Sequence record: OL631484.1 | Direction: 5' to 3' (one strand) | Length of the DNA: 64,000 nucleotides | Origin: Escherichia phage ECML-606-1 | In this document: piece after piece, positions 1,902-40,720 of the stretch | How the letters are laid out: every line of letters begins with the position of its first letter | Numbering within the stretch: the stretch's first letter is position 1 | The notes under the pieces: generated by a model | Database searches by the model: none | What the model saw: only the letters and a program-made list of their open reading frames with translations | What the model was told of the DNA's origin: nothing | Position numbers and translations under genes: made by a program

Positions 1902-2591
1902 TTACAGGCCAGTGCCCAGCACTTTCGCCAGAATCGCCGGATCAGGCTGATAACCGTTGCGCAGTGCGCAGTCGATCATGTTCAGCTGCACGCCAGTGAT
2001 CTTGCCTTCGTTGTATGCAACGTTGGACTTAATCATCAGGTCAGCGCCAGTGATCTGGGTATCTTCCGGCTGCTCAGTCGTTGCCTGAGTACCTGCCATG
2101 GATTTTGCCATCACGACAACCTGAGATTTACGCCCGGCACCCTGAGCGCCTGCATTAATCTGGTTCTGCTGCAATGATTTGATCAGCTCGCCCTGAGCCG
2201 CGATGGTGTTGCCCATGCGCTCCATCATCTGCATCATCAGCGGGAAACCAGTATTCAGCGCTTCGTTGGTGCTGTTTACGGATTTTTGCAGGGTTTCCAG
2301 CACTTCGGTGGCGTCGATCATCTGCTCACCATTTGCGCCTTCTACCGCAGGCAGAGATTTAGTCAGCTCGGTGTTTTCGCCCTGACCTTTGGTCTCGCCG
2401 TTCTCGTCTTTGTTTTCTTCGGTGTTTTCACCGGAACCAGCGCCAGCGCCTTCGCCGTTGTTGGCAGGGGATTCACCCGCAGCCGCCTGGATATTTTTGT
2501 CATCCTGAGCGGCTGGAATTGATTTCGCTAAAGTCTCTTTCTGCGAAGCATCGAGAGTCTGGAGCGTTTCCAGCAGATTTTTAAAGGACAT
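1902..2591 (-). CDS. scaffolding protein (putative)
   Basis: 229 aa, acidic low-complexity Glu/Gly/Asn-rich centre, located directly upstream of capsid gene. Confidence 0.45.
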   Translation of the reverse strand: MSFKNLLETLQTLDASQKETLAKSIPAAQDDKNIQAAAGESPANNGEGAGAGSGENTEENKDENGETKGQGENTELTKSLPAVEGANGEQMIDATEVLETLQKSVNSTNEALNTGFPLMMQMMERMGNTIAAQGELIKSLQQNQINAGAQGAGRKSQVVVMAKSMAGTQATTEQPEDTQITGADLMIKSNVAYNEGKITGVQLNMIDCALRNGYQPDPAILAKVLGTGL

Positions 2592-3479: not shown

Positions 3480-3532
3480 GGGGTTTGCCCTTTCAAAACA
3501 TGCTTAAATTCTGCCGTCACGACGCAAATACG

Positions 3533-6653: not shown

Positions 6654-6728
6654 ACGGTTAACCTTTGCAAAGTAGTTCGCAGAGAGTGACATCACGACAT
6701 CACGACGCAAAATAATTTAAATACCCTC

Positions 6729-7098: not shown

Positions 7099-7228
7099 AC
7101 CGATTAGTGACGATGAAAGGGGCCTTCGCGATCCCCAAGTAATTGGCAGGTTGCCTTAGGTCACAAGCCGCAGCGGAGATTGCAAGCGAAGCTGTAGGAT
7201 AGAGGTTCGACTCCTCTGATCGGTGCCA
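7099..7228 (+). ncRNA. atypically long tRNA-like element (about 130 nt)
   Basis: 7-bp acceptor pairing ACCGATT/GATCGGT, T-arm AGAGG-TTCGACT-CCTCT, discriminator and CCA at 7226-7228; about 55 nt too long for a tRNA. Confidence 0.3.
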
Positions 7229-7370
7229 TTTTTGCGGTTACACAAGTGTGCAGATAGCATGACGAGGAAAGGCGTTCCGTGCGACGCTGGAGGCGATGGT
7301 AGGGTAAGCACCCTCTCCTATGACTCACGACTCAACCTCTCCGGGTAACGACCGGAGCCGCAAAACAGAT

Positions 7371-7494
7371 TGAAGCGTAGCTCATTGGCAGAGCAGCACA
7401 CGGATGCGGATCCGCGCCAGCACAAGGCTCCTTCGGGGTGTGCCGCTGGCTCCAGAAGTGTATGTAACTGGTTCGATCCCAGTCGCTTCAACCA
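7371..7494 (+). ncRNA. atypically long tRNA-like element (about 124 nt)
   Basis: perfect acceptor stem TGAAGCG/CGCTTCA, canonical D-arm (GCTC-ATTGGCA-GAGC), T-arm ACTGG-TTCGATC-CCAGT and CCA; candidate anticodon stem halves GCACA/TGTGC separated by 38 nt. Confidence 0.35.
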
Positions 7495-7498
7495 TTTT

Positions 7499-7574
7499 GA
7501 TTCTGTAGCTACAGCGGTAGAGCGGCGCACTGTTAATGCGCGGGTCGCTGGTTCGAATCCAGCCAGAATCGCCA
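7499..7574 (+). tRNA. tRNA-Asn (anticodon GTT)
   Basis: hand-folded 76-nt cloverleaf: acceptor GATTCTG/CAGAATC, anticodon stem GCGCA/TGCGC with loop CTGTTAA, T-loop TTCGAAT, encoded CCA. Confidence 0.9.
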
Positions 7575-8299: not shown

Positions 8300-10915
8300 T
8301 TAATCGTCACCTTTCGAAATGAAGCCGGAGCAGCCAATATCCTCCGGCTTCACCTGCATCATGATCTCATGGCAGGATCTGGTCTCCGGGTCGTAGTTCA
8401 CACAGCGCCCGCAAACATCCCCGCGATACTTCACGTTGTTCACCTCATCCATGTAGCTCACCAGCGTCTGATCGACGCCGATATCCAGCGGGCTCAGTCG
8501 CTCGATCTTCACCTGCGGGGCATCCGGCAGAATAAACGTACTGGTGCCATGGGCGCGACTCCATGCGACATCGCACAGCAGGTTTGCGTAGGAGAAGTGG
8601 GGATCGATGCCGATTTTCTTCACGCTGCGCTTGTACTGGTTCGTTTCCTCGTCCTTCTCAGCCACCAGCGCCGTTTTGGTGAAGTGCGTGAACATTACCG
8701 GGGCCACGGCTTCCACGCGCGTGACGCCCTTCTCACGAATCTCCTGCACCAACCCCTGAGGGTCTGGGATGAGGCAGATTGGCTCGTCGGCAGTGAAGCG
8801 GGCCATTGAGACCTGCATACACTTATACTGGTCAATGCGGACGGTGTAGCGATCCTGTTCGTTCTCGTCGGTGCGCACATCGGACTTGTCCAGCTTCATG
8901 CTGTCATTCCACTGGATCATGCCATCCGCCACGGTGCCGAAGCTGTTACAGATGAATACCCGGCCTTTGTGACGGTTGGCGAAGCGCTTGGCGTCGTTGT
9001 AGTTCGGGTTGATTTCCACCACGCAGCAAGCCACGCCGTACTGGTTCATCAGCTCGCTACAGCGGGCAAACGGATCCTCGCTGTAAATCATTTCGATGTG
9101 GACAATTGCTTGGTGGCCGGAGGGCAGTCGCTCCTTGATAACCACCACGTTAAACTGGCCCATCTGGTCAATACCCATGTAGCAGTTATCCGCGCGGGAC
9201 TTCCACTGCACGCCAAAACGCAGGCCATGCTTAACGCAATTCGCCAGGTGTTCCAGCGTTACCGGAACCAGCGACGGATCGAGGAACGGCTTGCCCAGCT
9301 TACGGTTATAGAAGTTTTTCATATCCGTAGCGTTGTTGAAGGCGGAAATAATCTCGCCGGGGCTGATTGTCGGTGACAGGAACTGCGGGAAGTGCGCCGA
9401 CCGGATGCACATTTCCCCTTCCTCATTCTCCGGCGCATCCGGGATCCATTCCCCGCGCTGCGTGTCCTCAATCCATCCTCCGCAGCTGTAGCAGACATAT
9501 CGGTGGCGTCTGGTGTCCGGGTCGTACTTAATGCACTGCGGGAAATAGTCATCCAGCGGTTTCTTTTCGAGGCAGTGCGGGCATTCGGTATGGAAACGGT
9601 ACTGGGATCCCAGCTTGTACCAGTGGTGGATATCGGAGTCGGGCCAGTTGGCGGTGGAGCCCATCAGGCTGTAACGGATCGGGGATGCAGATAGACGCTC
9701 GCGCGTTTTCTCCATCTGCTCCAGTGACATTTCCTGCACCTCATCGAAGCTCAGGACATCCATCGGGATGGATTCGGTAGTCGCGCGGCCCGATGTCCAG
9801 CTGAATACAAACATCGCCTCACCGATGCGACGGGTACGCACGTTACCCTCACCTTTCTTGCGACCGCCGCCTTTCTCATCGTCCTGCACCATCAGCGCAT
9901 GTACCTCAGGTACGGTGCGCACAATCGGCATGAAGCGCTCGGAGGACTTGATCCCCGCCAGCGCGGCATCCGGCAAGAACATGCCGATAGTCATCGGCTG
10001 GAAGCGCAGGCCAAGGTAAATAACAGCGAGCATTTCCATGACGGTAAAGCCCACCTGCGCACACTTCATCAGCACCAGCGTTTTGCGGTATGCCTCCTCG
10101 ACGGTGCTGGGGATCTGGTCATAAATCCACGCCATCGCCGGGCGGTTGTCCAGCTTGAACGGGCGACCATCCACTTTGAGGCCCGTTTCGCCCAGCCGGA
10201 TGCACCACTCCAGAAAGGTCTCGTTTGGCTTGAGGATTTTCTGCGAGGCGGTCAGGACAAAGGTCGTATCGAGGAATTCAGCATCGTAGCGCTGGCGCTT
10301 CTCATCCCCGGTCGTGTTGTCCATTTTCTCCAGGAATGCCGCGTCGAGATTATGGCGGTTGGTCTCGGTCGGCACGCGGCGTCGGAACCAGTCAGGATCC
10401 AGCTCGGCCTCCATCCACAGGCGATAAAAGTCGTGATTCTTCCCGTAGGCACCGGACAGGAACCATGCACTGCCGTGGTACTCGCGCAGGCACTCAGCCA
10501 GCGTGTCACCCCAGATCTGCATGAAGTTGTAAATCTCGCGCACGTCATCAATGATCATCAGGCCATACTGCCCATTAACCTCTTTCAGGCTGTCAGCCGC
10601 GTAAAGGTCAATGTACTGGCCCGATAGCAGCGTGATGCGCCTGCTGGTTGAGCTCTTGATGAGGGGATCGATGGCCTGTACGATCCGCGTGCGAACCTCC
10701 ATAAGGTCTTTGTACGTAGCGCTCATCCACATCGCCGGGGCAGGGTTATTCATGATGCCCTGTTTCCCAGCCACCAGCGCCTCTATGCCAAGCGTTGTTT
10801 TTCCTGCCTTCTCGCCCATGGCAATAACGTTAAAACGCGCCGCACGGTCGATACAGACCTGCAACGCGTCATTGAGAATGGGCAGCTTAATTTTAACGGT
10901 CTTTTGGCGTGCCAT
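8300..10915 (-). CDS. terminase large subunit, lambda GpA-like, with N-terminal P-loop extension
   Basis: 871 aa; KCAQVGFT (res 284-291) resembles the gpA KSARVGYS P-loop; additional Walker A GEKAGKTT (34-41) and Walker B LMIIDDV (119-125); C-terminal Cys clusters; ATG at 10915 with AAGGA SD. Confidence 0.65.
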   Translation of the reverse strand: MARQKTVKIKLPILNDALQVCIDRAARFNVIAMGEKAGKTTLGIEALVAGKQGIMNNPAPAMWMSATYKDLMEVRTRIVQAIDPLIKSSTSRRITLLSGQYIDLYAADSLKEVNGQYGLMIIDDVREIYNFMQIWGDTLAECLREYHGSAWFLSGAYGKNHDFYRLWMEAELDPDWFRRRVPTETNRHNLDAAFLEKMDNTTGDEKRQRYDAEFLDTTFVLTASQKILKPNETFLEWCIRLGETGLKVDGRPFKLDNRPAMAWIYDQIPSTVEEAYRKTLVLMKCAQVGFTVMEMLAVIYLGLRFQPMTIGMFLPDAALAGIKSSERFMPIVRTVPEVHALMVQDDEKGGGRKKGEGNVRTRRIGEAMFVFSWTSGRATTESIPMDVLSFDEVQEMSLEQMEKTRERLSASPIRYSLMGSTANWPDSDIHHWYKLGSQYRFHTECPHCLEKKPLDDYFPQCIKYDPDTRRHRYVCYSCGGWIEDTQRGEWIPDAPENEEGEMCIRSAHFPQFLSPTISPGEIISAFNNATDMKNFYNRKLGKPFLDPSLVPVTLEHLANCVKHGLRFGVQWKSRADNCYMGIDQMGQFNVVVIKERLPSGHQAIVHIEMIYSEDPFARCSELMNQYGVACCVVEINPNYNDAKRFANRHKGRVFICNSFGTVADGMIQWNDSMKLDKSDVRTDENEQDRYTVRIDQYKCMQVSMARFTADEPICLIPDPQGLVQEIREKGVTRVEAVAPVMFTHFTKTALVAEKDEETNQYKRSVKKIGIDPHFSYANLLCDVAWSRAHGTSTFILPDAPQVKIERLSPLDIGVDQTLVSYMDEVNNVKYRGDVCGRCVNYDPETRSCHEIMMQVKPEDIGCSGFISKGDD

Positions 10916-10960: not shown

Positions 10961-13810
10961 TTATGCTTTGAGTCGGTCTACTTCATCCGCCAGCGTTTTG
11001 ACGGATTCGATCAGGTCTGCGATGAGCGCGTTTTGAGACACGTTCAGCACCCCGTTAACCTCATAGGTATAGATCGGGTCAATCTTCTGGAGCTCCTGCG
11101 CGATGTAGCCACGGTCATGGCGTCCGTCATGCTTCCAGTCGAATTCCCGCGCAACAATCTCACGGATGCGAGACAGTGCGCCCGGCTTGGCATCCTCCGC
11201 ATTATCTTTCAGCGCGATATCGGAGGCATTAAACTGAACTGTGCCCAAAGGCCCGGTAATATCACCGTTAGCTTGGAAAGCCCAGTCTTTATTTACCCCT
11301 CCTGAGTTTTGCTGGAGGGTGATTTGGTAAGCGAGAAGATCCGTACTGGCTCCTCGGACAGCGCCAGTCTGAACAAAGCCATTACACCATTGGTAGCTTG
11401 TCCATCCCGTCCAACCATTCGGGATGCTGCTCTTTCTGTTATTGAGCTCGACTCTGTTTTGCTCACCTGCTCGCACCCCACAACCACCACCCGCAGCGGT
11501 ATGCAGATCATTACAGGTGACGAGCGCGGAGATATCCAGCGCGTTTCCTGTCCATGGCTTGATGTTATTCGCCAGCAAATAACGTGGCACCGTCAAGTCA
11601 CCATTGGTATCAAAGATGAAGTTTTGGAAGGCCCCGGAAACCTCATTTTTTGCCTGAATGACAGCCATGCCCACGATAGATGATTCAGTGGTGGCATATC
11701 TTCCGCTGGCTACCAGCGAGGCCGAAAGTTTATCCGCGCCACCGATGGTATAGCGGGAATAGACCATCCCGCCCAGCACGCTCGTATTAGCACCCGGCGC
11801 GGTAGCATCACCAGAGATCACGCTGAAATTGGTGTTCGCTGACTGGAAGGCACCAGAGGCTCGGATGATCCAGATGCCCACAACCGAGTTCGGGCGCACC
11901 TCAGTACCACGTCCATACGCGGGGTTAGATCGGCTAGCATTAAATTTAAACCCGTTATAGGTTCCCGCTACAACTGGACCGGGTTGAATATTGTTAGGGA
12001 ATGAGTCCCCTTGATAAACGGCGCTTTGAGGGTCGTTAACCGCCGCGAATGCACCAGCACCTGAGTTGCCGATAAGACCCGTAATATTCGGCGCGGCGTT
12101 GTATTTAATCGCGCCTACGCCGCCGATCTCGCTAGTAAAATGACCACCACCATCACCACGCAGGAAGTTAGCCCCCGGAGTAAATCCATCAGCGTATGCG
12201 CCATTAAGATCAGGCACACGGAATTTCCCTGTACTTGATTGCTTAACATATGCGCCTCGGTTTTCACCTTTCCGCAGACCGTCAGCGCTACCGCTGTTTT
12301 GCCAAAGGGCTTCCGTTACCGTGACAACCCTGCCAGAATTCACCAAAGCATACAGATCTGCGGTTGCAGGATCTGTTTGGCTGCATTCCTGACCGTCGGC
12401 GGGGATATATCCAACGGGTAAGCTGGCACGCGATCCGTTCCACCATTCCACCGCGCCAACAAAGTTATTAAGCACGCCATTCATCGTTGGGCCAGAGCCG
12501 CCTGAGTTTGCTTTCAGCTGGCGCAGCGTAACTGCGTCATAATCTCCTGCTGCGTCGGCATTCAGCGTAAGCGGGCCTTGCAGACCTGTCAGCTGGGTGA
12601 TGTCACTATTAACACCAGACTGTGCCCCTTTTCTCCAGTCGGTGAATACGCTGCCATCATAGCTGCGCGAAGCAATACGCCCACTTTTAGCGATGTAAAC
12701 CTGAGTGACGCCACCAGATGCGCCGAACGGGAATACAGTCAGCTGACCGGGCTCATCAAACGGGAAGTTGTTGGCTGCAACAGCACCAGCAGCACTGGTC
12801 AGAGATACCACGCCATAATGCGCCGGGAGAATGCGGTCATTCAGGTTGATAACCGTTGAAATGCCATCCATCTGGGCGACGGCTTTCACTTCGGATGCCG
12901 CAGGCGGGTTATCGCTGGTATACATCCGGCGTGGTGCGCTCCAGTTGGTCGTCGTGCGCGTGATGCGATAAACCCACGTTGGCGTCGCGCCCTCAGACGC
13001 GAAGATGAAGACAGTCGATGTGCGATCCTCGTTGATGCCCTCACAGTGGATGCGCCACGCTGTAGCACCAGCGCCAGTGATGGTCGCCGGGAAGCCATTG
13101 GCAGTAATCGCATCGGCGGCCTTCACGCGCATAGTTTCACCTACGCGCCAAACGTGCGAGGTGATCGTGTCTCCGGTGGCAGCGAAGTCGAAGTAAGGCA
13201 GTTTGATGCCCATAAGTCCAGCATAACCCGCTGTGAGCACCGCCCCGTCGCGGGTGATGGTTGGACTGGCGATCTCCTGATCGGTCAGGGAGCGGGCGAT
13301 ATTCAGCGCTACGCCTCCGGTCGGCTGAGCACCGCTGCTGTGTGTCCAGTCGATTGTTGCACCGTTACCCGCGATCAGTAGGCCAGTCCATTTGCGCGGT
13401 GCAGTGCTCGGTGCGATGTTAAACCAGATCTCATAGGTGTCGGCTGCGACCTCCACCAGCTTACCGCCAAGGATGGTCGCTGAATTCGCGCCAAGATTGG
13501 TCTGAGCAGTAACGGTGATGCGTGCCGGATCACCGACAGTGGTCACAGAGCCGTCGCCTGTCTGCATGACAATGTTGGCGAAGCCAGTACCAGTCACCAC
13601 CATCAGCGTAATGGCAATTTTGCCCTGCGCGAGATTGGAGATCTTGCCCATCTTCTGCCAGCTATCTGACGTGATATCCCAGTCAGTGAGCATCACGGCA
13701 TTTTTATCCAGCATGGTCAGAGCATCGGTCAGCTTGCCCACATCAATTTTTAACGGGTTGGTCAGGTATGGGACAGGAAGCCCAAGCCGGGGAGTAGTTT
13801 TGTCCACCAT
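10961..13810 (-). CDS. tail fibre / tailspike protein with C-terminal intramolecular chaperone (peptidase S74-like) domain
   Basis: 949 aa; Gly/Thr/Ser/Asn-rich beta-type sequence; C-terminus NASDIALKDN...IAQELQKIDP matches the autoproteolytic chaperone signature of tail fibres. Confidence 0.65.
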   Translation of the reverse strand: MVDKTTPRLGLPVPYLTNPLKIDVGKLTDALTMLDKNAVMLTDWDITSDSWQKMGKISNLAQGKIAITLMVVTGTGFANIVMQTGDGSVTTVGDPARITVTAQTNLGANSATILGGKLVEVAADTYEIWFNIAPSTAPRKWTGLLIAGNGATIDWTHSSGAQPTGGVALNIARSLTDQEIASPTITRDGAVLTAGYAGLMGIKLPYFDFAATGDTITSHVWRVGETMRVKAADAITANGFPATITGAGATAWRIHCEGINEDRTSTVFIFASEGATPTWVYRITRTTTNWSAPRRMYTSDNPPAASEVKAVAQMDGISTVINLNDRILPAHYGVVSLTSAAGAVAANNFPFDEPGQLTVFPFGASGGVTQVYIAKSGRIASRSYDGSVFTDWRKGAQSGVNSDITQLTGLQGPLTLNADAAGDYDAVTLRQLKANSGGSGPTMNGVLNNFVGAVEWWNGSRASLPVGYIPADGQECSQTDPATADLYALVNSGRVVTVTEALWQNSGSADGLRKGENRGAYVKQSSTGKFRVPDLNGAYADGFTPGANFLRGDGGGHFTSEIGGVGAIKYNAAPNITGLIGNSGAGAFAAVNDPQSAVYQGDSFPNNIQPGPVVAGTYNGFKFNASRSNPAYGRGTEVRPNSVVGIWIIRASGAFQSANTNFSVISGDATAPGANTSVLGGMVYSRYTIGGADKLSASLVASGRYATTESSIVGMAVIQAKNEVSGAFQNFIFDTNGDLTVPRYLLANNIKPWTGNALDISALVTCNDLHTAAGGGCGVRAGEQNRVELNNRKSSIPNGWTGWTSYQWCNGFVQTGAVRGASTDLLAYQITLQQNSGGVNKDWAFQANGDITGPLGTVQFNASDIALKDNAEDAKPGALSRIREIVAREFDWKHDGRHDRGYIAQELQKIDPIYTYEVNGVLNVSQNALIADLIESVKTLADEVDRLKA

Positions 13811-13860
13811 TTCCGGGATCTCTCTTGTTCAGGAATAGCGGATATTCTGGAATCACTACG

Positions 13861-13890
13861 GGGAAATAAAAAGCCCGGACAGTACCGGGC
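13861..13890 (-). terminator. rho-independent terminator
   Basis: GCCCGG-ACAGTA-CCGGGC hairpin followed on minus strand by TTTTTATTT. Confidence 0.5.
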
Positions 13891-13898
13891 TGGAAGGT

Positions 13899-15990: not shown

Positions 15991-18900
15991 TTATACGCTC
16001 GGCAGGATGATACATTCCACAACGGTCATGCCGCTGCCGCCAAAGCCATCGGCGTCCTTAGTCCCCGATTCGTTCACCTTAGTGATGAGTAGGCGGGTAT
16101 TAGGTGGCAGGATAATTTCTTTTTCCCCGGTATGGTGCGAGATAGATCCACCACTCGGAAGCGAGCCAGCGCCCGCATAGATACCTTTTACGCCGGGGCC
16201 TGCTGTCATTTTGAGGTGAATATTACCACTCCACACGTCTGGACTGATAGACGTGGACATAATTGCAGGCTCCATGATGACCTTGCCGACCGACGCTTTC
16301 AGCTTGGAGAGATCACCGCTGCCCAGACTGAATTTGCGCCCGAACGTGGTACCCGGCGAAATTTCATGGCCCATACCAGACAGCGCCTGCGCTGCTGCTT
16401 TCGCTTCTGCGCTTGGGTTGCCCTTCCACAGTCCGCTGTTCATCTGCTTATAACTGCTACCAGTATACGCCTGCACGGCCTGCTTTTGTGTCATCGGCAG
16501 CTTTTCCCACACTTCCTGTGCTGCTTTGGCATAAGTGTTTGTGGTCAGCGTGCCAGCCTTGAAAGTGGTTTTAGTAATGCCAAGGTCTTCCGGCTCAACA
16601 ATCCCCGGATGGCCCAGCACCAGCAGGTTCCCGATCTTGTCTGCATCGTTACCGCTCCAGTTTTCCGGCTTGTATTCTTCGTGCATCGAATACAGCGGGT
16701 GATCGCCGCCGATACGGAACTGCTCGGCTTCATGCCCGGTAAGCTGGCTCTTAATCTCGTTAATCGCCTGCATCGCGTAGCCTTTGATGTGCTGCGATGG
16801 GTGATCGAGCACTGGCACCTGTCCGGTAACAGCTCCGGTGTCTTTGTCAAAGGTTGGCGCGGTCAGGCCGCGAATGGCTTCCGGGTCTCCGGTCAGCGCC
16901 GCAGAATAAATGGCCTGCGCCGCGTCGTGGTTCCCTTTGTTCAGGAACTCTTTGGAGGACGGGCCGGATTTGCCAACGCCAGACCAGTTGAGGAAGTCAG
17001 GCGGGGTACTGATTTTCTCCGGCTTGAATTTCTGCATTTTGATGATCTGCTCGGCTTCCGGGTACTTCTCAGCCAGATACTCTTTGCGCTTGATGAGCGT
17101 TTCCACCAGCTCTTTTTTGGCCTTCTCATCGCCCGGCCCATACTGGTTGACCATGTGCGCGATTTTGGCGTCGGAGATAGCCAGCACCTTGGAGACAGAC
17201 GCGGCGATATCGGCCTCAGTCATGCCACCGAAGACGGCGGCGCTGTTCGCGTTCATCTTCGGATCCATCAGTGACTCCAGCTCCTTAACTACCGGGCCAA
17301 ATTCTTTCTTCGCACCCTGCGCACGGAACATCAGCGAGCCGCCCGCATCGACGCGGTGAATGGTGCCGTCATCTTTCAGCTGCACGTTGTCTTTCGCCAG
17401 CCCCACGACATCCCAGTTACCCAGCCACGCATCAACGGCAAAGCCTTCCAGCATACCCTTGGCCTTCGCCAGCGCTGCATGGGTTTTGGCCTTCTTGATG
17501 TTCTCCCACTTCGAGGCAATAGCCATTTTCCCGTCCTTGGTGACGATCATGGCGTCCTGCGCGGACAGGCCAGCGGCGCTATACAGTTTCGCTGCCAGCA
17601 CCTCAGCCTTGGCGTGCTCCTCGTTATCCGGGAACTTCACATACCATTCCTGCCCATCGGCGTCCTTCATTTTCATGCCTTCATTCGAACCGCCTTGGTT
17701 GCCCCCGGTCACTGTCCACTCATCGACGCTGATCGGCTCTTTCTTCTTCCACTGGTACTTTTTGACCTCCATCGGGCCATCAGCGGCAAGGCCATTCTCT
17801 GCCGGGTTGCTGGTCGCGGCGGTAGCATTCATCAGCTGCGCGACGCCATTCATAGCATAGGTGCCATTCACCTCAGGGTTATAACCGGACTTAACCTTGA
17901 TCCCATTAGCCATCAGCATCATCGACGCATATTGCGCCAGCGCCTTTTTACCCGGCGCGGTCGGGCCATACTCCGTTGAGACCTTAATTTTCATCCCAAA
18001 CTCGCCATAAATCAGCATCGAACCATCGGCTTTCTGCATGATGACGCCTTTGGTGCCGCCGCCTTTGGTCAGCTTGGCTTTGAGGTTATCTACATATTTC
18101 ATGTAGTGATCCTGCTGCCAAGCGCTCAGGCCAAGCGCAGCGAAGTCAGGTGCTGGGATCTCGTCAGGATTGGCCCTAACCCAGCGCCCGTTTTTCAGGA
18201 TCAGCATCCCATTGGCACCCGGCTTCATGTCGCCTTCTTTCGGGCCATCGCCTTCTTTCTGGCCCTCGTCGGCTTTCTTAGCATCTTCTTCGGCTACGGT
18301 GTTTTTGATAGCCGTCAGGATCCCTTCGATAGCCACAGGAGTAAAGTCGTTGATGATAAGCACGCTCTTAATGGTGCTGACCGCATCCACTTTGTCCGGG
18401 TTGGCGTCGTAGTATTCCTTGCACGCCACCGACGCCTTGACGACCTTTTGCAGCCCGGTTTTGGTCTCCGCGATGCTCTTGATGTCGTCCAGCAGTTTCA
18501 GGTCGATATTACCCAGCTCCGGCGCGGCAGGTTCAGGCGCAGGCGCAGGCTCCTCAGCTCCGGTGATCTGATCCTGTACAAAGGTCATGGTGCTGATCGC
18601 GTAATCCGTCATGCTCATCTTGACCACATCGGTGCCCTGATTCGCCATCAGCGCATACGCGGACTCTTTGACGCTGTTCAGCACGGCCTCTTTCATTTCC
18701 GGCGAGTCGGTGTACTTCGCCAGCATCGCCATCGCTGCCAGACCATCCAGCGCATCTGCATCCGCCATGCTATCGCCCTTGTAACTGGCTTTCGGGATCC
18801 CCTGCGGGACGCCGTGCATGTTGATGCTGTCTTTCAGTATGGACTGGAGGACAGGGATATGGGCCACGTTATCGCCTGCGGCCTTCACGATGTCCTGATA

Positions 18901-21900
18901 GGTGGCAGGGTTGTCGCCTTTCTTCGCCACGTAATCCTGTACAGCCATCAGCGTTTCGAGGTTGTCTTTGGCGTTGTTGAAGACCAGCCCAAGGTCATAC
19001 ATGTTTTTCGGCTTGCCCGGCGCAGCGGTCAGCTTGTCCAGCACCTCAGCCATGTACTCCTTGTACTTGGTACCGTTGATCGTGGTGCTCGGCGTCACGT
19101 TCTGCTCATATTTCATAGCCTCAATGAGCAGCTTTTTGCTGTTCTCATCCTTCGCCAGTGTTGCAGCGATGGCGTAGCCCTGAAAATCAGTTGCCTCGGT
19201 CGAGTAGAAACCAACGTCCGGCTTAATCGGCAGGTTGAGCGGCTTGCCATGCTTTTTGAAGTAAGCCTGACCGATTTCAGACGCAGCGTAGACGTGCCCG
19301 CTGTTCATTTTCAGGATATTGTCGATAACAGTCGTGTACGCGCCCTTATCGCCATGGTTATCCTTGATGAATTCCAGACCGATGCTGGTCGCATCATCGC
19401 CGTTCGCGCCAGCGAGGGCCTGTTTGAGCGCCACAATCTCGCTGCCCGCGCTGCCATTGGCTGAGGTCTCAGGCATATCCTGCTGTAAGATCCAGTGCCC
19501 ATTATGGAAGACCAGAATACCGCCTTTACCCTGCTTGGTATCACCTTCTTTCGGGCCATCCTCTACCAGCCACTTATTGACCTCCTGCTGGTACAGTTTA
19601 ACCTGCACAGCAGCTGGCTCTGAAAGGTGAAGCTCGCTCAGCTCATTAAAGTGCTTGGCGATCACATCAGGATCTGATTCTTTGCCTTTGTGAACTTCTT
19701 CGGCAATGACGTTATAGAGGGTCTGCACTTTCGTGCCATAGGTTTTCACCGTGTCGCTGGTTGGTGATACCAGCGGTTTTTCTGGCTCAGTCCCGTAAGT
19801 CTCACTCCACCACTTACCATAGGCTTTCTTGCCAGCGATAAAGAACTCATTCGCCAGCTCGTTAAACCCATTGTCCTTCATGGCCTCAGCCAGCACCACC
19901 AGCTGCGGCGCATCATGCCCATTCGCCGTCATCCAGTCGCCAGCAATCGCGTCGGCCTGTTTTTCGTCCTTGGCATCTGTCAGCGCATCAAAGGCGCTTT
20001 CCCACATGGCGTAATCATTCAGGATCGCTTTCTTCTCCTGCTTACGCTCATGTTTGGTGGCAATCTGCTCGGATTTCGCCGCAGCCTGAGACTTCTCGGC
20101 CCATGAATCGTACAGCTTCCCGACGCTGGACTCGGAGAAGGCCAGATCGCTACCGTAATAGGTAGACGCCTGCTCAATGAATGCCTCGCCTTTTGTCTTC
20201 GCCCACTCGTTGAACTCAGCCACATCGGCAAAATCCGGCAGCTGCGGCTCAGGGGTTGGCGCACGCTCCTGCTTGATCTGCGGTGGCGTCGGCAGGGATT
20301 TCACGGAGATATCGCCCAGCTCTTTCTTGGCGGCGGTCACGGCTTCGATGATCCACGCGGACAGATCAACCTTCTGGAAGGCATCAATCAGGTTCTGGTC
20401 ATCACGGATCACTGTCACCATGTCGTTGATGTTGTCCACAGCCAGCGCCCAGTTACCCGCGTTGAGGTCATTCTGGATGTCCTCACAGATGCCGTCGATA
20501 AACGCATCACCAGTCTGCGGAGGATTGGAGAAAGTCTTCACTCCCTCAGGCTTAGGCGCAGCAGCAAGGCCCAGAGACTCCGCCAGATTGACCGCAGGCT
20601 CTTTGCCAGCCATTACCTGCTGGTAAACCTCATTCTGCGTGTTGGAGAAGCCGGAGATATGGCCCCAGTCGCCCTTCTCGTTAACCCACATACCAGATCC
20701 CGGATTCTTCGGATCCGCGACGATGACTGCGCTGGTATTGGTCGGGTAAACGCCTGCGTCTGGAGTCGTGGACAGCACGCCATTCCACATGTTCTTGATG
20801 ACGTTTTGCTGCTTCTGGGTCAGGTGATTCGGCTTGCCCAGCTCCACCAGCTCGGTCGGGTACTCGCTATGGTGATAGTCGGAAATGTAGCCCAGATTGT
20901 CCGGGGTTTTGGTGTTGCCACCAAAGCCGATCAGTTTCAGGTACTGTCCCGCTTGGAACGGCTTAGCCAGCGGCTCACCCTTCTTGCTTATAGGCCATGC
21001 GGTCGCGTGCCCCATCAGCACTTTCAGGTACGGCTTACCGTCCTTGTCGTAGGTCTGGATGATTGAGCCTGCGGGCAGGTTCGGCATATCGGAGATCGAC
21101 AGCTTCTGGCCCTTTTTGAACTCACCAGCGACAGGCTGATCCTTGAGCGGCTCGCCAGTCTCCTGATTGTGCCAGCGACCGTCTTTGAAAACCTGCATCC
21201 CGTTTTTGCCCATGCGGGTATCACCTTCCTGCGGGCCTTCCTCAGCCCGGACGGTTTTCTGCTGCTCAACCTCTGCGCTGGCCTTCTGATCCTTTTCTGC
21301 CTGGCTAAACTGGCCCAGCATTGGATGCACGGCGTCTTTGCCGATAACCACTTTGATATCCGGGTAGCCCAGCGCTGCCAGCGCGTTATTCGCAGCCTTG
21401 GCGACTTTGAGCCCGTAGGTGTTTTTTCCGTATGTCATCGCCAGAATGCCGTTGATGTTGCCTACTTCGCCAGCGGCCTTGATAGCGGCGATCTGCGCGT
21501 TGTAGCTCTTGGCATTCTTAATGTTCTCCGCGACGGCGAACTGGCTCCAGTCGATAGCGTCCATGGCCTTCTTCGACACGGATGCTTTCGGGGCTGGCTT
21601 GCCTTCGGCGGTGTCCGGCTGCGCCGGGGAGGTAGCGATGATTTCAACCGCGCTCAATGGGCTCGGCTCCTCGGACTGCACCAGCGGCTTATTCGGATTC
21701 TCACCCGTCAGCAGCGCCAGCTTTTGCCCGTAGAGGTTCAGCAGCTTTTTGCTGTTCGGGGTGATGCCCTTCCAGCTTTTCGCCTTGCTCTTGATAGCTT
21801 CCAGCTCCGCCAGACTGGTGGCGTCGATGACCTTCTGAGCCTGCGCCTCATACGCGGTGCGCACGCCAGTGGAGTTTTTGCCGGATTCAAATTTAGGCAT

Positions 21901-22764
21901 GACGATTTCGCCTGGCTTCGGTGCTTCGGCAGCAGGTGTTGAGGCTTTCTGGACTTCTTCTTTAGCTGCGTTTTTTTTCTCAGGTGAAGGAGACGGCCCA
22001 TCTTTTGGCATAATAAGGCTTAGTTTTTTTGCTCCACCCGGTTCAGTTTTAAAGTATCCAAACTGCGTACCGTAATTCTCAATCGCGTGCAGCTGGTGCT
22101 GTTTTAAATCACCAATCTCAATAGTGATGACGTTATTTTTTACTTTGTATGCTTCAATCGGTGGCAGACCTAGGTAACTCTCAATTCCAGAAACAATGGC
22201 TTGTTGTTTGGCTGTCAAATTACCTGTAGCTGGTTTTGTTGCTGCCTTTGCCTCTTGCGCTACGGCTTCAATGGCCTGCTCAGCCATCTGATCGACGGTC
22301 TCAGGCTCTCTCTCGTATGTGGCGATGGCAGGGTGCTCACCCGCTTTCTGGCCCGCGCTGACCTTCTCCTGCGAGCCCATTTGCTCCAGCAGATAGTTGG
22401 CAATCGCCACCAGCTTTTTACCGTGGGTGTTCACGCCATAGGATGATCCCAGAATCGCCGCGATATCGCCGTTGGCAGCGTGCTGCAACAGGTTCGGGAC
22501 GTGTTTCTGGTTGAAATGCTTAATGTCTTTGTTGGTCGCCTCTTTCTCAGCAGGATAGAGCAGCTGGCTCGACTCCTCCTTAGGCATGGCGTAAGGCTTA
22601 TGGCCTTTGCCACCAGCTTTAGGGTGCGCGGCTTTCGGGGCGTTCTTGACGCCCTTCATGTCCGGCGTGGTTTTCTTCCAGCGCCCATTGATCAGAGCAT
22701 AGCCCGCTTGGTGGGCGAATTTTTGATTAAGTGCTTTTGCGAGGACAAGCATGGTGGCCACCAT
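15991..22764 (-). CDS. giant virion-associated protein with C-terminal ADP-ribosyltransferase-like domain
   Basis: 2257 aa; C-terminus has TFGRKF, IMSTSIS (STS) and GEKEIILPP (ExE); recurring internal motifs EGDTKxGxxGxxVFxNGRW and ILGSSYGVNTHG / ILAMTYGKNTYG. Confidence 0.65.
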   Translation of the reverse strand: MVATMLVLAKALNQKFAHQAGYALINGRWKKTTPDMKGVKNAPKAAHPKAGGKGHKPYAMPKEESSQLLYPAEKEATNKDIKHFNQKHVPNLLQHAANGDIAAILGSSYGVNTHGKKLVAIANYLLEQMGSQEKVSAGQKAGEHPAIATYEREPETVDQMAEQAIEAVAQEAKAATKPATGNLTAKQQAIVSGIESYLGLPPIEAYKVKNNVITIEIGDLKQHQLHAIENYGTQFGYFKTEPGGAKKLSLIMPKDGPSPSPEKKNAAKEEVQKASTPAAEAPKPGEIVMPKFESGKNSTGVRTAYEAQAQKVIDATSLAELEAIKSKAKSWKGITPNSKKLLNLYGQKLALLTGENPNKPLVQSEEPSPLSAVEIIATSPAQPDTAEGKPAPKASVSKKAMDAIDWSQFAVAENIKNAKSYNAQIAAIKAAGEVGNINGILAMTYGKNTYGLKVAKAANNALAALGYPDIKVVIGKDAVHPMLGQFSQAEKDQKASAEVEQQKTVRAEEGPQEGDTRMGKNGMQVFKDGRWHNQETGEPLKDQPVAGEFKKGQKLSISDMPNLPAGSIIQTYDKDGKPYLKVLMGHATAWPISKKGEPLAKPFQAGQYLKLIGFGGNTKTPDNLGYISDYHHSEYPTELVELGKPNHLTQKQQNVIKNMWNGVLSTTPDAGVYPTNTSAVIVADPKNPGSGMWVNEKGDWGHISGFSNTQNEVYQQVMAGKEPAVNLAESLGLAAAPKPEGVKTFSNPPQTGDAFIDGICEDIQNDLNAGNWALAVDNINDMVTVIRDDQNLIDAFQKVDLSAWIIEAVTAAKKELGDISVKSLPTPPQIKQERAPTPEPQLPDFADVAEFNEWAKTKGEAFIEQASTYYGSDLAFSESSVGKLYDSWAEKSQAAAKSEQIATKHERKQEKKAILNDYAMWESAFDALTDAKDEKQADAIAGDWMTANGHDAPQLVVLAEAMKDNGFNELANEFFIAGKKAYGKWWSETYGTEPEKPLVSPTSDTVKTYGTKVQTLYNVIAEEVHKGKESDPDVIAKHFNELSELHLSEPAAVQVKLYQQEVNKWLVEDGPKEGDTKQGKGGILVFHNGHWILQQDMPETSANGSAGSEIVALKQALAGANGDDATSIGLEFIKDNHGDKGAYTTVIDNILKMNSGHVYAASEIGQAYFKKHGKPLNLPIKPDVGFYSTEATDFQGYAIAATLAKDENSKKLLIEAMKYEQNVTPSTTINGTKYKEYMAEVLDKLTAAPGKPKNMYDLGLVFNNAKDNLETLMAVQDYVAKKGDNPATYQDIVKAAGDNVAHIPVLQSILKDSINMHGVPQGIPKASYKGDSMADADALDGLAAMAMLAKYTDSPEMKEAVLNSVKESAYALMANQGTDVVKMSMTDYAISTMTFVQDQITGAEEPAPAPEPAAPELGNIDLKLLDDIKSIAETKTGLQKVVKASVACKEYYDANPDKVDAVSTIKSVLIINDFTPVAIEGILTAIKNTVAEEDAKKADEGQKEGDGPKEGDMKPGANGMLILKNGRWVRANPDEIPAPDFAALGLSAWQQDHYMKYVDNLKAKLTKGGGTKGVIMQKADGSMLIYGEFGMKIKVSTEYGPTAPGKKALAQYASMMLMANGIKVKSGYNPEVNGTYAMNGVAQLMNATAATSNPAENGLAADGPMEVKKYQWKKKEPISVDEWTVTGGNQGGSNEGMKMKDADGQEWYVKFPDNEEHAKAEVLAAKLYSAAGLSAQDAMIVTKDGKMAIASKWENIKKAKTHAALAKAKGMLEGFAVDAWLGNWDVVGLAKDNVQLKDDGTIHRVDAGGSLMFRAQGAKKEFGPVVKELESLMDPKMNANSAAVFGGMTEADIAASVSKVLAISDAKIAHMVNQYGPGDEKAKKELVETLIKRKEYLAEKYPEAEQIIKMQKFKPEKISTPPDFLNWSGVGKSGPSSKEFLNKGNHDAAQAIYSAALTGDPEAIRGLTAPTFDKDTGAVTGQVPVLDHPSQHIKGYAMQAINEIKSQLTGHEAEQFRIGGDHPLYSMHEEYKPENWSGNDADKIGNLLVLGHPGIVEPEDLGITKTTFKAGTLTTNTYAKAAQEVWEKLPMTQKQAVQAYTGSSYKQMNSGLWKGNPSAEAKAAAQALSGMGHEISPGTTFGRKFSLGSGDLSKLKASVGKVIMEPAIMSTSISPDVWSGNIHLKMTAGPGVKGIYAGAGSLPSGGSISHHTGEKEIILPPNTRLLITKVNESGTKDADGFGGSGMTVVECIILPSV

Positions 22765-22796
22765 TCAACGAATAATGGCCCAGTGTGGCATCACGA

Positions 22797-23042
22797 CTAA
22801 TTAACGTCTTTCACCTTCCTACCGAAGCGCTCCACGCACGCGAGAAACGCCTCCTGTTTCGTGTGGCAATACTCCGACAGCATCGTGGAGTGTTTGCCGT
22901 CATGAAACTGGATCTCCCACTTCGCGGATCCGGTCTTTGGCGGGCCGGGCCAGTCAGCGGCGGCGTCGTATACCGCCTGCTGCTCCGGTGTCATCTGGAA
23001 ACTCAACGGCCTGCTGCCTTCTTGAGCTCCATGACGATGCAA
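22797..23042 (-). CDS. hypothetical protein
   Basis: small ORF in minus-strand gene chain; start uncertain. Confidence 0.3.
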   Translation of the reverse strand: MHRHGAQEGSRPLSFQMTPEQQAVYDAAADWPGPPKTGSAKWEIQFHDGKHSTMLSEYCHTKQEAFLACVERFGRKVKDVN

Positions 23043-28587: not shown

Positions 28588-30095
28588 AAGGCATCGTCAT
28601 CTTCATCAGGATCCGGCAGGTGCCGATCCTCGGTCTCCTCCGGGAATTCCTCTCCGGTGTAGAAGTGGACGGCCTTACGCCCGGTCAGGTTCTGCCAGCG
28701 ACGAATCGCCACATCAGCAAAGCCCAGATCGAGCTCCATCACGCGTGCGCATACGCCCATTCGCTCGGCGGCCACCAGTGAAGTACCAGAGCCGGAGAAG
28801 GGATCCACCATGATGTCATTCAGGCGCACGGTGTTCTTCATCATGCGCTCCCACAGCTCCACGGGCTTCTGCGTCGGGTGCAGGTCGCTGCGGTCAGGAC
28901 GCGGCACGCTGACCACGCTGCCCAGCATTGACTCCACCTTGGCGTCGCCTTCCACCCGCATGATGAGATCGCCGTACTGGAAATACCAGTTACCCTCGGC
29001 ATCCTGTTTGAATGGGCTTGAGTCGCCAAACTCCGCGACGGTCGTTTGCTTCCTGCCACCGTGCCAGCGGTGCTTGGCACCCTTGCGCCAGCCGTACAGG
29101 ATTGGTTCATGGATGCTTTGGAAGTCAGCCATGCCCAGTGTCATGCTGTTCTTCTTCCAGATGACATTCTGGGAGAAGTGGAAACCGACCTTTTCAAACG
29201 CCCAGCGCAGGCCATGGGCCATCTTGTCGGAGTGGCTGATATAGGTCACGCCGCCCGGCTGCATCGCGTCATAGGCGCAGCTCAGGACATTGACGAGGAA
29301 CTGATTAAAGTCCTCCTCGTTTTTCCAGTCGTTAGCGATCCCGCCAGTGCGCGAGCGCTCGCCTCCGATGGCCTTATCCATGCGCTTATTCTTCTTGCCC
29401 ACATCGACGTTATACGGGGGATCGGTCAGCATCATGTTGGCCTTCTCGCCCTGCATCAGCGCCAGCCAGCTTTCCGGCTGCTCAGCATCGCCAACATACA
29501 GGCGATGAGCGCCCAGCACCCACAAGTCGCCCGGACGGCTCTTTGGCTCGTCAGGAAGCGGTGGCGCATCATCGGGATCGCTGTCACCTCCTCCTCCCTC
29601 CATCGGCGGCAGCTTCATGATCTCGTCCAGCTGCTCAGGGTCGAAGCCGATAACATCCAGATCGTAGTCCAGATCAGCCAGGGCATTCATTTCGATGCGC
29701 AGCATGTCCATGTTCCACTCGGACGCCCGGCCCAGCTGGTTATCCGCGATGATGTACGCGCGGCGCTTAGCCTCATCCCAGCCAGTGCAGTCCAGCGTCG
29801 GCACCATGCCAATAGGGATCGGTGTGCCATCCGGGAAAGCAATTTGCTTGCCCTCGCTGTACAGCTTCATCGCTGCCAGCTGGCGTCCATGGCCTGCCAC
29901 AATCCCTTGCTCATCGACGAGGATGGCGTTAGTCCACCCGAATTCAAGCATTGACGCGGCGACCTTCTGGACGTGCGCCGGGCTATGGTCGTTTGAGTTG
30001 TTCACGTAGGGGATGAGGCTATCAACCGGGCGCAGCCGGATCATCGGGGGGATCACGTCCAGCCCCAACATCTTGTTAAAATCTTTATCAGCCAC
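28584..30095 (-). CDS. DNA methyltransferase with N-terminal ParB-like nuclease domain
   Basis: ParB/Srx-like VAGHGRQLAA; methyltransferase motif IV LTDPPYNV before motif I VDPFSGSGTS (beta-class N6A/N4C order). Confidence 0.7.
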   Translation of the reverse strand: MADKDFNKMLGLDVIPPMIRLRPVDSLIPYVNNSNDHSPAHVQKVAASMLEFGWTNAILVDEQGIVAGHGRQLAAMKLYSEGKQIAFPDGTPIPIGMVPTLDCTGWDEAKRRAYIIADNQLGRASEWNMDMLRIEMNALADLDYDLDVIGFDPEQLDEIMKLPPMEGGGGDSDPDDAPPLPDEPKSRPGDLWVLGAHRLYVGDAEQPESWLALMQGEKANMMLTDPPYNVDVGKKNKRMDKAIGGERSRTGGIANDWKNEEDFNQFLVNVLSCAYDAMQPGGVTYISHSDKMAHGLRWAFEKVGFHFSQNVIWKKNSMTLGMADFQSIHEPILYGWRKGAKHRWHGGRKQTTVAEFGDSSPFKQDAEGNWYFQYGDLIMRVEGDAKVESMLGSVVSVPRPDRSDLHPTQKPVELWERMMKNTVRLNDIMVDPFSGSGTSLVAAERMGVCARVMELDLGFADVAIRRWQNLTGRKAVHFYTGEEFPEETEDRHLPDPDEDDDAF

Positions 30096-30630
30096 GTTCG
30101 ATCACCACTCTAATGTTGGTTTCATTGCCATTGCCCTTATCCAGCCCCCACGCCTTACGCTCCCCGTTCTGGGTATTGGTCAGCGTTTCGGAGGTGATTT
30201 TGGCGAGTTTAGCCAGATCAAAGTTTTTGTCTTTGATGGCCTGATAGGCGAGGGTGCGCGGGTAGTCCCATTCCTTCTGGTGCTTCTCCAGCAGGTTGGC
30301 GCGAGCCAGCGCAGCGAACTCGGCGGTAATCTCATCCGCCAGCGCGTTGAGCTCGTCCTCAGTGACTACGCCCAGTTTGGCCCGGCGCTTCTTGAACTCC
30401 TCCAGCGCCTCTTTGCTCATCCCGCTCAGGTTGGGATCCTGCTTGCACCAGCCCTCCACGCGGACTTTGCCAGAAATGGTGTCAGGCGCTACGTTAAATT
30501 CCTTGGCGAGAAGCGACGGCGTGGCTTCCGGGTCACTCTCGTAACGGATCCGCAGTGCCGTCCATGCCTCTGCCGACAGCTTGACGCGAGGCTTACGCCC
30601 CGTGGCTTTTGTCTTGCGTGGCGTCACCAT
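30088..30630 (-). CDS. putative DNA-binding protein (HTH-like)
   Basis: 180 aa, basic N-terminus, LAKEFNVAPDTIS helix-turn-helix-like segment. Confidence 0.35.
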   Translation of the reverse strand: MVTPRKTKATGRKPRVKLSAEAWTALRIRYESDPEATPSLLAKEFNVAPDTISGKVRVEGWCKQDPNLSGMSKEALEEFKKRRAKLGVVTEDELNALADEITAEFAALARANLLEKHQKEWDYPRTLAYQAIKDKNFDLAKLAKITSETLTNTQNGERKAWGLDKGNGNETNIRVVIERG

Positions 30631-34975: not shown

Positions 34976-35144
34976 ACATCCAGTCAGTGCCCCCGTACTC
35001 GCGGCGAATGGTGATATCTACAGTCCGCCCATCGTCGAGGCGGCGGCGCAGGTAATACCCGCCATACGGGAAATGCTCATCGGCTGGAATGGGCATATTG
35101 GTGATTTTCTTAGCCATAGCGGGCCTCTCTCTCTTTGGTGGCAA
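34920..35144 (-). CDS. hypothetical protein
   Basis: 74 aa ORF. Confidence 0.3.
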   Translation of the reverse strand: MPPKRERPAMAKKITNMPIPADEHFPYGGYYLRRRLDDGRTVDITIRREYGGTDWMYAQQLKDARKKLAAVLEE

Positions 35145-35367
35145 AGTGCAGTTTCATTACACGTTCGTGTAACTCCATTCTGGCATCACGGCCTCGCTTT
35201 TTCTCGATGGCATCAAGCAGCGCGTAACGGTCTGCCTTGCTAGGCAGGTTCAGCACGTACCGGGCTTCACATTCCAGTAACCACTCGCGGGAATCGCTTG
35301 GCACCTGCCGACCGTCCACCAGCTCCACCAGTGGGGCCTTCCAGCTGCACGCGTTTCTCGTTTCCAT
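35110..35367 (-). CDS. hypothetical protein
   Basis: 85 aa; AAGGAG SD before ATG 35367; promoter upstream. Confidence 0.45.
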   Translation of the reverse strand: METRNACSWKAPLVELVDGRQVPSDSREWLLECEARYVLNLPSKADRYALLDAIEKKRGRDARMELHERVMKLHFATKEREARYG

Positions 35368-35939: not shown

Positions 35940-36005
35940 GGTAAGTCTCCTGAGTCGTATCGAAGTCGATTAAAGCCGCATCGCTGCGGCATCAGGAGAA
36001 TACTG

Positions 36006-36251
36006 TCACGACGCGGACTTAATCAGCCCCACTTTGGAATCAGCGCCGATCATCAGATCGTGACTACCGCAGAGAATGCGGTCGTGGTTCACAATCCCGA
36101 TAGCCCGGCAAAGCAGCTGGCGTCTACGGGCCCGATTGATGCGCTTAGGGAAGTTCAGGGGAATGACGCTTATTTGCCCATCGTAGAATGCTGCTTCGGC
36201 CTCCTCGTCCAGCAGTGCGATATGAGCGGTAATTACTCTCAGCAGGTTCAT
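36006..36251 (-). CDS. hypothetical protein
   Basis: 81 aa ORF. Confidence 0.3.
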   Translation of the reverse strand: MNLLRVITAHIALLDEEAEAAFYDGQISVIPLNFPKRINRARRRQLLCRAIGIVNHDRILCGSHDLMIGADSKVGLIKSAS

Positions 36252-40244: not shown

Positions 40245-40505
40245 TTAGCGCGGGATGAATGGCTTCTGGGTAAAGACCTCAGCCTGCGGGAAGTCAAAAG
40301 AGACATCCGGTGCCATTGCCTGAGAAGGCAGTGACTTGATGTGCTGGGATCCATCAGGCAGGAATACGCCAGCAAGGTAACGCGGCACCTGAATGACGTT
40401 TGCAGCCAGTGCATAGCCCGGTGGTGCTGCGGGATTAACGGTATCGTCGATTGTAGCCATGGGTAAAAGCCCTCGTTGTGTCTGAGGGCTCCAGTATGCC
40501 GTCAC
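40245..40505 (-). CDS. hypothetical protein
   Basis: 86 aa ORF. Confidence 0.3.
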   Translation of the reverse strand: MTAYWSPQTQRGLLPMATIDDTVNPAAPPGYALAANVIQVPRYLAGVFLPDGSQHIKSLPSQAMAPDVSFDFPQAEVFTQKPFIPR

Positions 40506-40720
40506 TACCTCCGGCGATTAATCTCATGGTACAGCGCAGCCATGAAAATACCGATGGCGACGGGCCAGCACAGCATGACCATAACCAGCGTCTGGGGCGG
40601 CATGTTCTTGCCACCGATCCCCATCCTGCCTGAGATAAAGTCAATCAGGATGACTGCCGCACCGATCAGCAGTGCGACAGCGCCGTAAAATTGCAGCTTC
40701 TCCAGCCAGAAGTCACTCAT
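40505..40720 (-). CDS. small membrane protein
   Basis: 71 aa with two hydrophobic helices. Confidence 0.4.
   Translation of the reverse strand: MSDFWLEKLQFYGAVALLIGAAVILIDFISGRMGIGGKNMPPQTLVMVMLCWPVAIGIFMAALYHEINRRR

Follow-up and report, generated by a model that had tools for sequence, protein, structure and literature searches.

A heptamer rigidly coupled to a -10-like element as the probable late promoter of a clade of large myoviruses

Late genes of the window and the motif upstream of them

Nearly all genes of the window, i.e., the whole 64-kb stretch of phage DNA that was analyzed, lie on the - strand. Based on Pfam matches and annotated orthologues, the 871-aa open reading frame (ORF) encodes the large terminase, the 949-aa ORF the tail fibre, the 2257-aa ORF a giant protein with a C-terminal ADP-ribosyltransferase domain, and the 294-aa ORF the prohead protease; the last of these had been called a head gene in a preliminary description of this DNA, and its annotated orthologues identify it as the protease rather than the major head protein. 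The portal gene begins at 6653, rather than at the TTG at 6710. Over a tested 5.5 kb, the window and Enterobacter phage phiT5282EW (PQ352032, 95.5 kb) share 97.6% identity, with window position 1 corresponding to approximately position 27,509 of that record. Most genes of the two phages are 97-100% identical, while the primase-helicase (60% amino-acid identity), the tail fibre (64%), and several small genes are diverged or replaced (e.g., at window 57243-60128, 10961-13810, and 35469-35939), which points to mosaic exchange. Matches to the structural module were found in a small group of ~86-95-kb myoviruses, namely Yersinia phage fHe-Yen8-01, Pseudomonas phages Dolphis, Jeremy, and Touem01, Aeromonas phage ST4, and Bordetella phage PHB04, with Morganella phage Mecenats66 as a more distant relative.

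The large terminase gene spans 8300-10915 (-), and in its 871-aa product the GpA ATPase domain does not begin until residue 274. The annotation lacks a small terminase; a weak PHROG small-terminase match was obtained for a 180-aa protein (30088-30630), whose Dolphis orthologue lies behind a predicted late promoter. The giant 2257-aa protein (15991-22764, -) has a C-terminal ADP-ribosyltransferase exoenzyme domain as its sole Pfam match and is virion-associated in fHe-Yen8-01 according to the record annotation, which together make it a candidate for an injected host-modifying toxin. A 437-aa protein (38772-40085, -) carries a YadA-like outer-membrane anchor domain at its end; the annotation of its fHe-Yen8-01 homologue is that of a particle-associated receptor-binding protein, and the window gene has a predicted early-type promoter of its own at ~40100-40135. 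Beside the tRNA-Asn gene (7499-7574), the regions ~7140-7235 and ~7380-7495 (+) carry tRNA-like acceptor/T-arm ends. Neither ARAGORN nor Rfam calls a tRNA in these two regions, which may be decayed or interrupted tRNA genes, and ST4 has three tRNAs at the equivalent place.

The preliminary description had reported recurrent strings upstream of late structural genes, and these are indeed present, i.e., catcacgacatcacgacgcaa at 6690-6710, TCACGACGCAA at 3517-3527, and CATCACGAC at 22789-22797. The first, located before the portal gene, is a tandem of the 8-bp ATCACGAC followed by GCAA. The core common to the reported strings reads GTCGTGA on the coding strand. A listing of all GTCGTGA copies and their surroundings, drawn from the window and the complete phiT5282EW genome, showed an A and a T, five and nine bases past the heptamer, in 10/10 gene-proximal copies. 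The real unit on the coding (-) strand is GT(C)GTGA-N4-A-N3-T, which is 16 bases long and rigid. The repeated core of the unit proposed earlier is retained, and its TTGC (GCAA) part, which is not conserved among the relatives, is not; conservation runs downstream instead (N4-A-N3-T).

Measured against shuffled sequence, the claimed recurrence holds for the extended motif: GTNGTGA-N4-A-N3-T has 7 matches in the window versus 1.12 expected, all 7 on the - strand, and 0/100 shuffles reach 7. The reported strings by themselves are only marginally non-random. The 11-mer with at most one mismatch has 3 window matches, a number equaled by 17/100 shuffles, and in this literal form it was rejected as a signal for lack of enrichment; the 9-mer has 4 matches versus 0.49 expected, and 0/100 shuffles reach 4. 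A weight matrix trained on fHe-Yen8-01, Dolphis, and ST4 only, i.e., with the window phage left out, recovered the window sites, giving 10 window matches of at least 10 bits, 9 of which are on the - strand (null mean 2.8, null maximum 7). The motif is always on the coding strand and at most ~60 nt from a start codon.

Five of the 7 window sites precede the genes for the portal, the prohead protease, the tail fibre/terminase, and the giant ADP-ribosyltransferase protein, and one small gene (Table 1). The copies listed in the preliminary description are among the sites found, and the sites at 13859 (tail fibre) and 40508 had been overlooked. The remaining two sites (36012 and 2117) are doubtful: the former is not conserved in fHe-Yen8-01, and the latter was not found there. 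The site at 2117 could represent an internal promoter or have arisen by chance.

Table 1. Positions of the motif-bearing sites and adjoining features in the window. +1 positions are predicted.
Feature	Position	Strand	Sequence and remarks
Putative late promoter core, portal	6683..6698	-	GTCGTGATGTCACTCT; orthologous sites in four relatives
Upstream copy of the 8-bp tandem duplication	6699..6706	-	GTCGTGAT; G where the invariant A(-11) belongs
Putative late promoter, operon of prohead protease, scaffold-like gene, and major capsid	3508..3523	-	GTCGTGACGGCAGAAT; predicted +1 at 3501
ATG-TTT-TGA mini-ORF	3493..3501	-	begins at the predicted +1, upstream of the real protease ATG 3479
Putative late promoter variant, tail fibre and large terminase	13844..13859	-	GTAGTGATTCCAGAAT; predicted +1 at ~13837
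Intrinsic-terminator-like hairpin and T-run	13872..13891	-	directly upstream of the 13859 site
Putative late promoter, giant 2257-aa virion protein gene	22782..22797	-	GTCGTGATGCCACACT; predicted +1 at ~22776-22775
Putative promoter variant, 71-aa gene	40493..40508	-	GTAGTGACGGCATACT; predicted +1 at ~40486; gene ATG 40460
Possible site	35997..36012	-	GTCGTGACAGTATTCT; overlaps the stop codon of an 81-aa gene
Perfect-consensus match	2102..2117	-	GTCGTGATGGCAAAAT; inside a 229-aa gene (1902-2591); absent from fHe-Yen8-01

Conservation of the sites among related phages

For counting across genomes, the strict pattern GTCGTGA-N4-A-N3-T was used, for which the null mean is ~0.5 and the null maximum 5. 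It occurs 10 times in phiT5282EW, 7 times in fHe-Yen8-01, 13 times in Dolphis, 10 times in ST4, and 12 times in PHB04, so that the recurrence reported from a single phage extends to its relatives with 7-13 sites per genome versus ~0.5 expected. All strict sites but one are on the majority gene strand, and the one exception precedes a + strand gene. Orthologous sites precede the genes for portal, protease, head-tail adaptor, and baseplate, the holin/endolysin cluster, the tail fibre gene, and the giant gene, and in some of the genomes the terminase gene as well. The motif-bearing genomes span 47-66% GC, and the terminases of the relatives are 44-81% identical to that of the window at the protein level. 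At orthologous positions the motif is retained down to ~35-65% protein identity, with diverged flanks. PHB04 carries CTCGTGAC motif variants, and in Mecenats66 there is only a degenerate form, xGTGAT plus a -10.

Searching IMG/VR for one exact variant of the motif gave 56 stretches, among which those with a single site are indistinguishable from chance matches. Twenty stretches have at least two sites, and in 19 of these 20 the sites are all on one strand; 16/16 of those with any match carry genes of the clade (26-100% amino-acid identity).

The portal site has orthologues at fHe-Yen8-01 529, Dolphis 4528, ST4 70172, and PHB04 39198. In the window, its predicted +1 is near 6676 (A), which would give a leader of ~24 nt with an AAAGG Shine-Dalgarno (SD) sequence before the ATG at 6653. 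The tandem noted earlier at this site is real as a sequence, but probably not as a functional unit: its upstream copy has a G in place of the invariant A and is therefore probably not a second promoter, and the tandem is absent from fHe-Yen8-01, which identifies it as a lineage-specific 8-bp duplication. In a five-phage alignment of the protease upstream region, the block GTCGTGAC.GCA..AT and a CATG are kept, while the flanks are diverged and unalignable; the mini-ORF at this site is probably what remains of a leaderless protease start such as is found in Dolphis, ST4, and PHB04. The site at 13859 lies upstream of both the 949-aa tail fibre gene (10961-13810) and the large terminase gene (8300-10915), and its orthologue GTTGTGACTCTATCCT precedes the tail fibre gene of fHe-Yen8-01; the hairpin next to it would mark a transcription-unit boundary. 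Orthologues of the giant-gene site are found at fHe-Yen8-01 77765, Dolphis 84103, and ST4 87002. At 40508, a hairpin followed by a T-run (~40491-40461) reaches as far as the ATG, with the predicted +1 in its left arm, and at the orthologous place fHe-Yen8-01 has kept TTCGTGACGATATCCT, followed by a hairpin.

Anatomy of the element and predicted transcription start

In 50 aligned sites, the information content is <0.2 bit at each position from -67 to -23, i.e., there is no -35 element. A canonical sigma-70 -35 hexamer (TTGACA-like, 16-18 bp upstream of the -10) is not conserved in these 50 sites, and a consensus scan of the late region found no sigma-70 consensus promoter before the late genes. 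In the -10 hexamer recognized by factors of the sigma-70 family, the most important bases are A(-11) and T(-7), which have three bases between them. The A and T of the motif, whose invariance is built into the search pattern, fit these positions, with the start predicted ~7 nt downstream. Numbering from A(-11) and T(-7) places the heptamer at -22 to -16 and a Y-G at -15/-14, the position of the TG of extended -10 promoters. The coupling of the two halves is rigid: among the 84 GTCGTGA heptamers of five genomes, 52 carry A-N3-T at a spacer of 4, compared with 0-7 at each other spacer.

Further base preferences in the 50 sites are a C as the third base of the heptamer, Y(-15), G(-14), C(-12), M(-8), and, six bases past the invariant T, C(-1)-A(+1). 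Position -15 is a pyrimidine in 46/50 and position -14 a G in 32/50, and the exact TG of an extended -10 is found in 18 of the 52 strict sites. By sigma-70 standards the -10 half is weak, having C instead of T at -12, and at three window sites the predicted +1 is a pyrimidine.

In 24 sites, most of which belong to Dolphis, ST4, and PHB04, an ATG is located 6-7 nt past the T, and nearly all of these ATGs open a long ORF (e.g., portal, protease, adaptor, baseplate, terminase, or the giant gene). An SD-like sequence precedes 0/24 of these motif-adjacent ATGs versus 89/130 of the annotated phiT5282EW genes. Since ATGs that lack an SD sequence would be translated efficiently only from leaderless mRNAs, the RNA 5' end is expected at the ATG; this is also where a -10 element ending at -7 would place +1, which fixes the predicted start site. 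Most sites in the window phage and in fHe-Yen8-01 have leaders of 12-35 nt with SD sequences.

Terminator-like hairpins are located directly upstream of several sites, including the one at 13891-13872 in the window and others in Dolphis, ST4, and PHB04. The site may even be nested in the terminator, as is seen at two conserved positions, i.e., for a holin-cluster gene in four genomes and for window 40508: the predicted +1 is in the left arm of the hairpin, and the hairpin plus T-run ends at the next start codon. As +1 lies inside the left arm, such a hairpin would stop incoming transcripts, yet could not form in RNA that begins at the site.

Very probably, then, the element is the late promoter of this clade, i.e., a rigid 16-bp unit with the consensus G(-22)TCGTGA(-16)-Y-G-N-C-A(-11)-N-A-M-T(-7). 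A late-gene promoter or activator site had been suggested in the preliminary description, and the sequence and comparative evidence supports it: the sites are strand-specific, stand before morphogenesis, packaging, and lysis genes at orthologous positions that have been kept, and show a -10-like geometry, and the SD-less start codons follow the motif at a fixed 6-7 nt. Initiation by RNA polymerase at these sites would occur late in infection. The downstream half would act as a -10-type element, often with TG at -15/-14, where the host RNA polymerase would open the DNA by means of region 2 of a sigma-70-family factor, acting via A(-11) and T(-7), and the asymmetric heptamer GTCGTGA (-22 to -16) would stand in for the -35 element. 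Its reader would most likely be a phage-encoded specificity factor, since a heptamer that is foreign to sigma-70 is conserved across phages that infect Enterobacter, Yersinia, Pseudomonas, Aeromonas, and Bordetella, including hosts as distant as Bordetella and Yersinia. Transcription is predicted to begin 7 nt past the T, usually with an A that follows a C. In the high-GC relatives the +1 A would be the A of the start codon, giving leaderless late mRNAs, and the layout suggests late units separated by terminators that lie just upstream of, or overlap, the start.

The window also holds a second class of promoters in its early/middle region, with a TTGnnn -35 and a palindrome, TACGTCAC-NN-ATGACGTA, that overlaps the -10. 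This class has 16 matches at up to 3 mismatches versus 0.2 expected, with 18-nt sites at 14622, 24732, 26501, 28566, 37933, 47824, 51948, 52862, and 53758, and the class is probably an operator-controlled set of early/middle promoters. The copy at 14622 is predicted to drive a 142-aa gene embedded in the late region. Like the late element, this class is a repeated, highly non-random, promoter-associated motif of the same genome; unlike it, it combines a -35 hexamer with a symmetric operator, it precedes small early/middle genes, and no site belongs to both classes. The distinction from the early-gene operator that had been drawn earlier is thus upheld, the early sites having sigma-70-like -35/-10 hexamers together with the palindrome.

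Alternative readings, candidate readers, and implications

The host sigma-70 holoenzyme alone might use the sites as -35-less extended -10 promoters, in which case no phage factor would be involved, the sites would not be specifically late, and DNA shape or contacts with the core enzyme would account for the conserved heptamer. Sigma-70 is compatible with both the A(-11)/T(-7) geometry and the Y-G often found at -15/-14, and no phage transcription factor was found in the ~50 proteins scanned. However, to our knowledge none of the known sigma-70 promoter elements corresponds to the seven invariant or nearly invariant bases from -22 to -16, which are kept across beta- and gamma-proteobacterial hosts at 47-66% GC. 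Moreover, TG is present in just 18/52 sites, and the sigma-70-type promoters of the phage itself are quite unlike these sites and have -35 hexamers. Use by the host holoenzyme alone is hence considered unlikely.

A function of the motif in RNA 5' leaders rather than as a promoter, be it in translational control as an operator, in RNase processing, or in antitermination, would agree with the finding that it always lies on the coding strand and no more than ~60 nt from a start codon, but is judged quite improbable. The 24 SD-less ATGs that follow 6-7 nt on would be hard to translate unless the RNA starts at the ATG, and since several sites directly follow terminators, few transcripts coming from upstream would include the motif. 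In addition, an Rfam search around the portal site matched no family, and an invariant A-N3-T at a rigid distance fits the geometry of DNA melting. GTCGTGA might also be the operator of a dimeric activator or repressor beside an unrelated promoter, or a methylation or packaging site, with A-N3-T incidental; although the gene set of the phage includes several DNA methyltransferases and HTH proteins, there is hardly any likelihood of this, as an asymmetric heptamer without a dyad, strict strand specificity, rigid coupling to A-N3-T, and a position set relative to start codons are not expected of such sites.

Two known promoter types were rejected by inspection of the sites and proteins. Sigma-54 promoters have GG at -24 and GC at -12, spaced by 10 (TGGCAC-N5-TTGC). 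Such a promoter was suggested by a YGGCAC in several sites, but GG-N10-GC is in register in just 4/52, and no sigma-54 activator domain was found in the proteins scanned. In T7/SP6-type systems, a phage single-subunit RNA polymerase reads a ~20-bp promoter that ends at +1. A CACTAT-like resemblance is limited to a few sites, and this type was ruled out because there is no RNA polymerase among the large ORFs, for which Pfam gave terminase, tail fibre, the ADP-ribosyltransferase giant protein, primase-helicase, helicase, and methylase.

The predicted late promoter resembles known -35-independent late and middle promoters of phages, while differing from each in sequence, in geometry, and in the absence of the corresponding protein. 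Late promoters of phage T4 consist of TATAAATA at -10 and are read by the truncated sigma factor gp55 with the co-activator gp33. The likeness lies in a single compact -35-less element with a phage-specific recognition sequence, present in many copies before morphogenesis genes, and in the use of the host core RNA polymerase throughout, as is proposed here. The sequence is unrelated, however, and the present element has an extra 7-bp block at -22 to -16 beside its -10-like A-N3-T; neither a late sigma factor nor any other gp55- or gp33-like protein was found by Pfam or PHROGs among the proteins scanned, and the T4 late type was rejected. The middle/late promoters of Thermus phage P23-45 are of the extended -10 type and -35-independent, the host sigma-A holoenzyme being redirected by gp39 and gp76. 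They share the lack of a -35 element and the reliance on the -10 region and the bases just upstream, as well as, in the present proposal, a host RNA polymerase that is reprogrammed rather than replaced. In contrast, the present sites have a conserved heptamer at -22 to -16 and not merely TGn, with TG in about one third of them, and no gp39 or gp76 homologue was identified here.

In T4 middle promoters, a MotA box at -30 is combined with a sigma-70 -10, and sigma is appropriated by AsiA/MotA. Here too a phage-specific upstream box would take the place of the -35 next to a sigma-70-type -10, but the box lies at -22 to -16 instead of -30, has another sequence, and is rigidly coupled to the -10 over 4 nt; no MotA or AsiA homologue was found here. 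Late promoters of P2, P4, and 186 are activated by the zinc-finger proteins Ogr, Delta, and B through a dyad, TGT-N12-ACA, near -55. Both systems have multiple late operon promoters with a poor -35, and the universal small proteins of the clade include two zinc-binding ones. The Ogr/Delta type was nevertheless rejected, as nothing is conserved upstream of -22 and the Cys-rich proteins have no match to Pfam Ogr_Delta.

Scans of ~50 proteins with Pfam, PHROGs, and NCBIfam turned up only generic HTH proteins, and neither a sigma factor nor an RNA polymerase nor a recognised late activator was among them. Phyletic profiling of six phages yielded three universal small proteins without assigned function outside the structural and replication-recombination modules. 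The first (gene at 48185-48730, -) has 181 aa with eight invariant cysteines, and its AF2 model (pLDDT 79) gave no fold match; the second (47844-48185, -) is a 113-aa TFIIS/Elf1-like zinc-ribbon protein; and the third (35110-35367) is an 85-aa DUF7696 protein with uninformative homologues. The two zinc proteins are weak candidates for the reader of the motif. Directly upstream of the 181-aa Cys-rich gene and its zinc-ribbon neighbour lies a region (48800-49175) that holds nine of the ten GGAACGGT octamers of the window, in both orientations, flanking an AT-rich core (~48870-49030). This arrangement of iterons and an AT-rich unwinding region looks like a replication origin, and the 181-aa and zinc-ribbon proteins may be replication initiators. 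Because their genes are directly downstream of the origin-like iterons and they may act in replication, they were left unassigned as the factor.

Searches of the literature found neither a description of the element nor transcript 5' ends, expression timing, or binding data for any clade member. A tentative combined reading is that the ~90-95-kb myoviruses of beta- and gamma-proteobacteria possess an undescribed late-transcription system, in which a phage protein unlike known activators and recognisable sigma factors docks on the host RNA polymerase, reads the -10-coupled heptamer, replaces the -35, and launches largely leaderless late mRNAs; the 181-aa Cys-rich protein or the 113-aa TFIIS/Elf1-like zinc-ribbon protein is one possibility for this reader. 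Reporter or engineered phages could possibly use the 16-bp element as a promoter that depends tightly on infection. For poorly annotated phages such as phiT5282EW, in which nearly all genes are labeled 'hypothetical', the motif provides an operon map and predicted starts, and it also corrects start codons, e.g., that of the fHe-Yen8-01 portal gene. The annotated start of this gene (653) probably lies 66 nt too far downstream; its place would be taken by the ATG at 587, which aligns with the N-terminus of the window portal protein (MSDN/MPDN) and lies 42 nt after the predicted late promoter. A strongly conserved promoter without an identifiable reader points to a missing transcription factor, i.e., a protein that redirects RNA polymerase, and in the high-GC members, translation of the main structural genes is anticipated to proceed from leaderless mRNAs.
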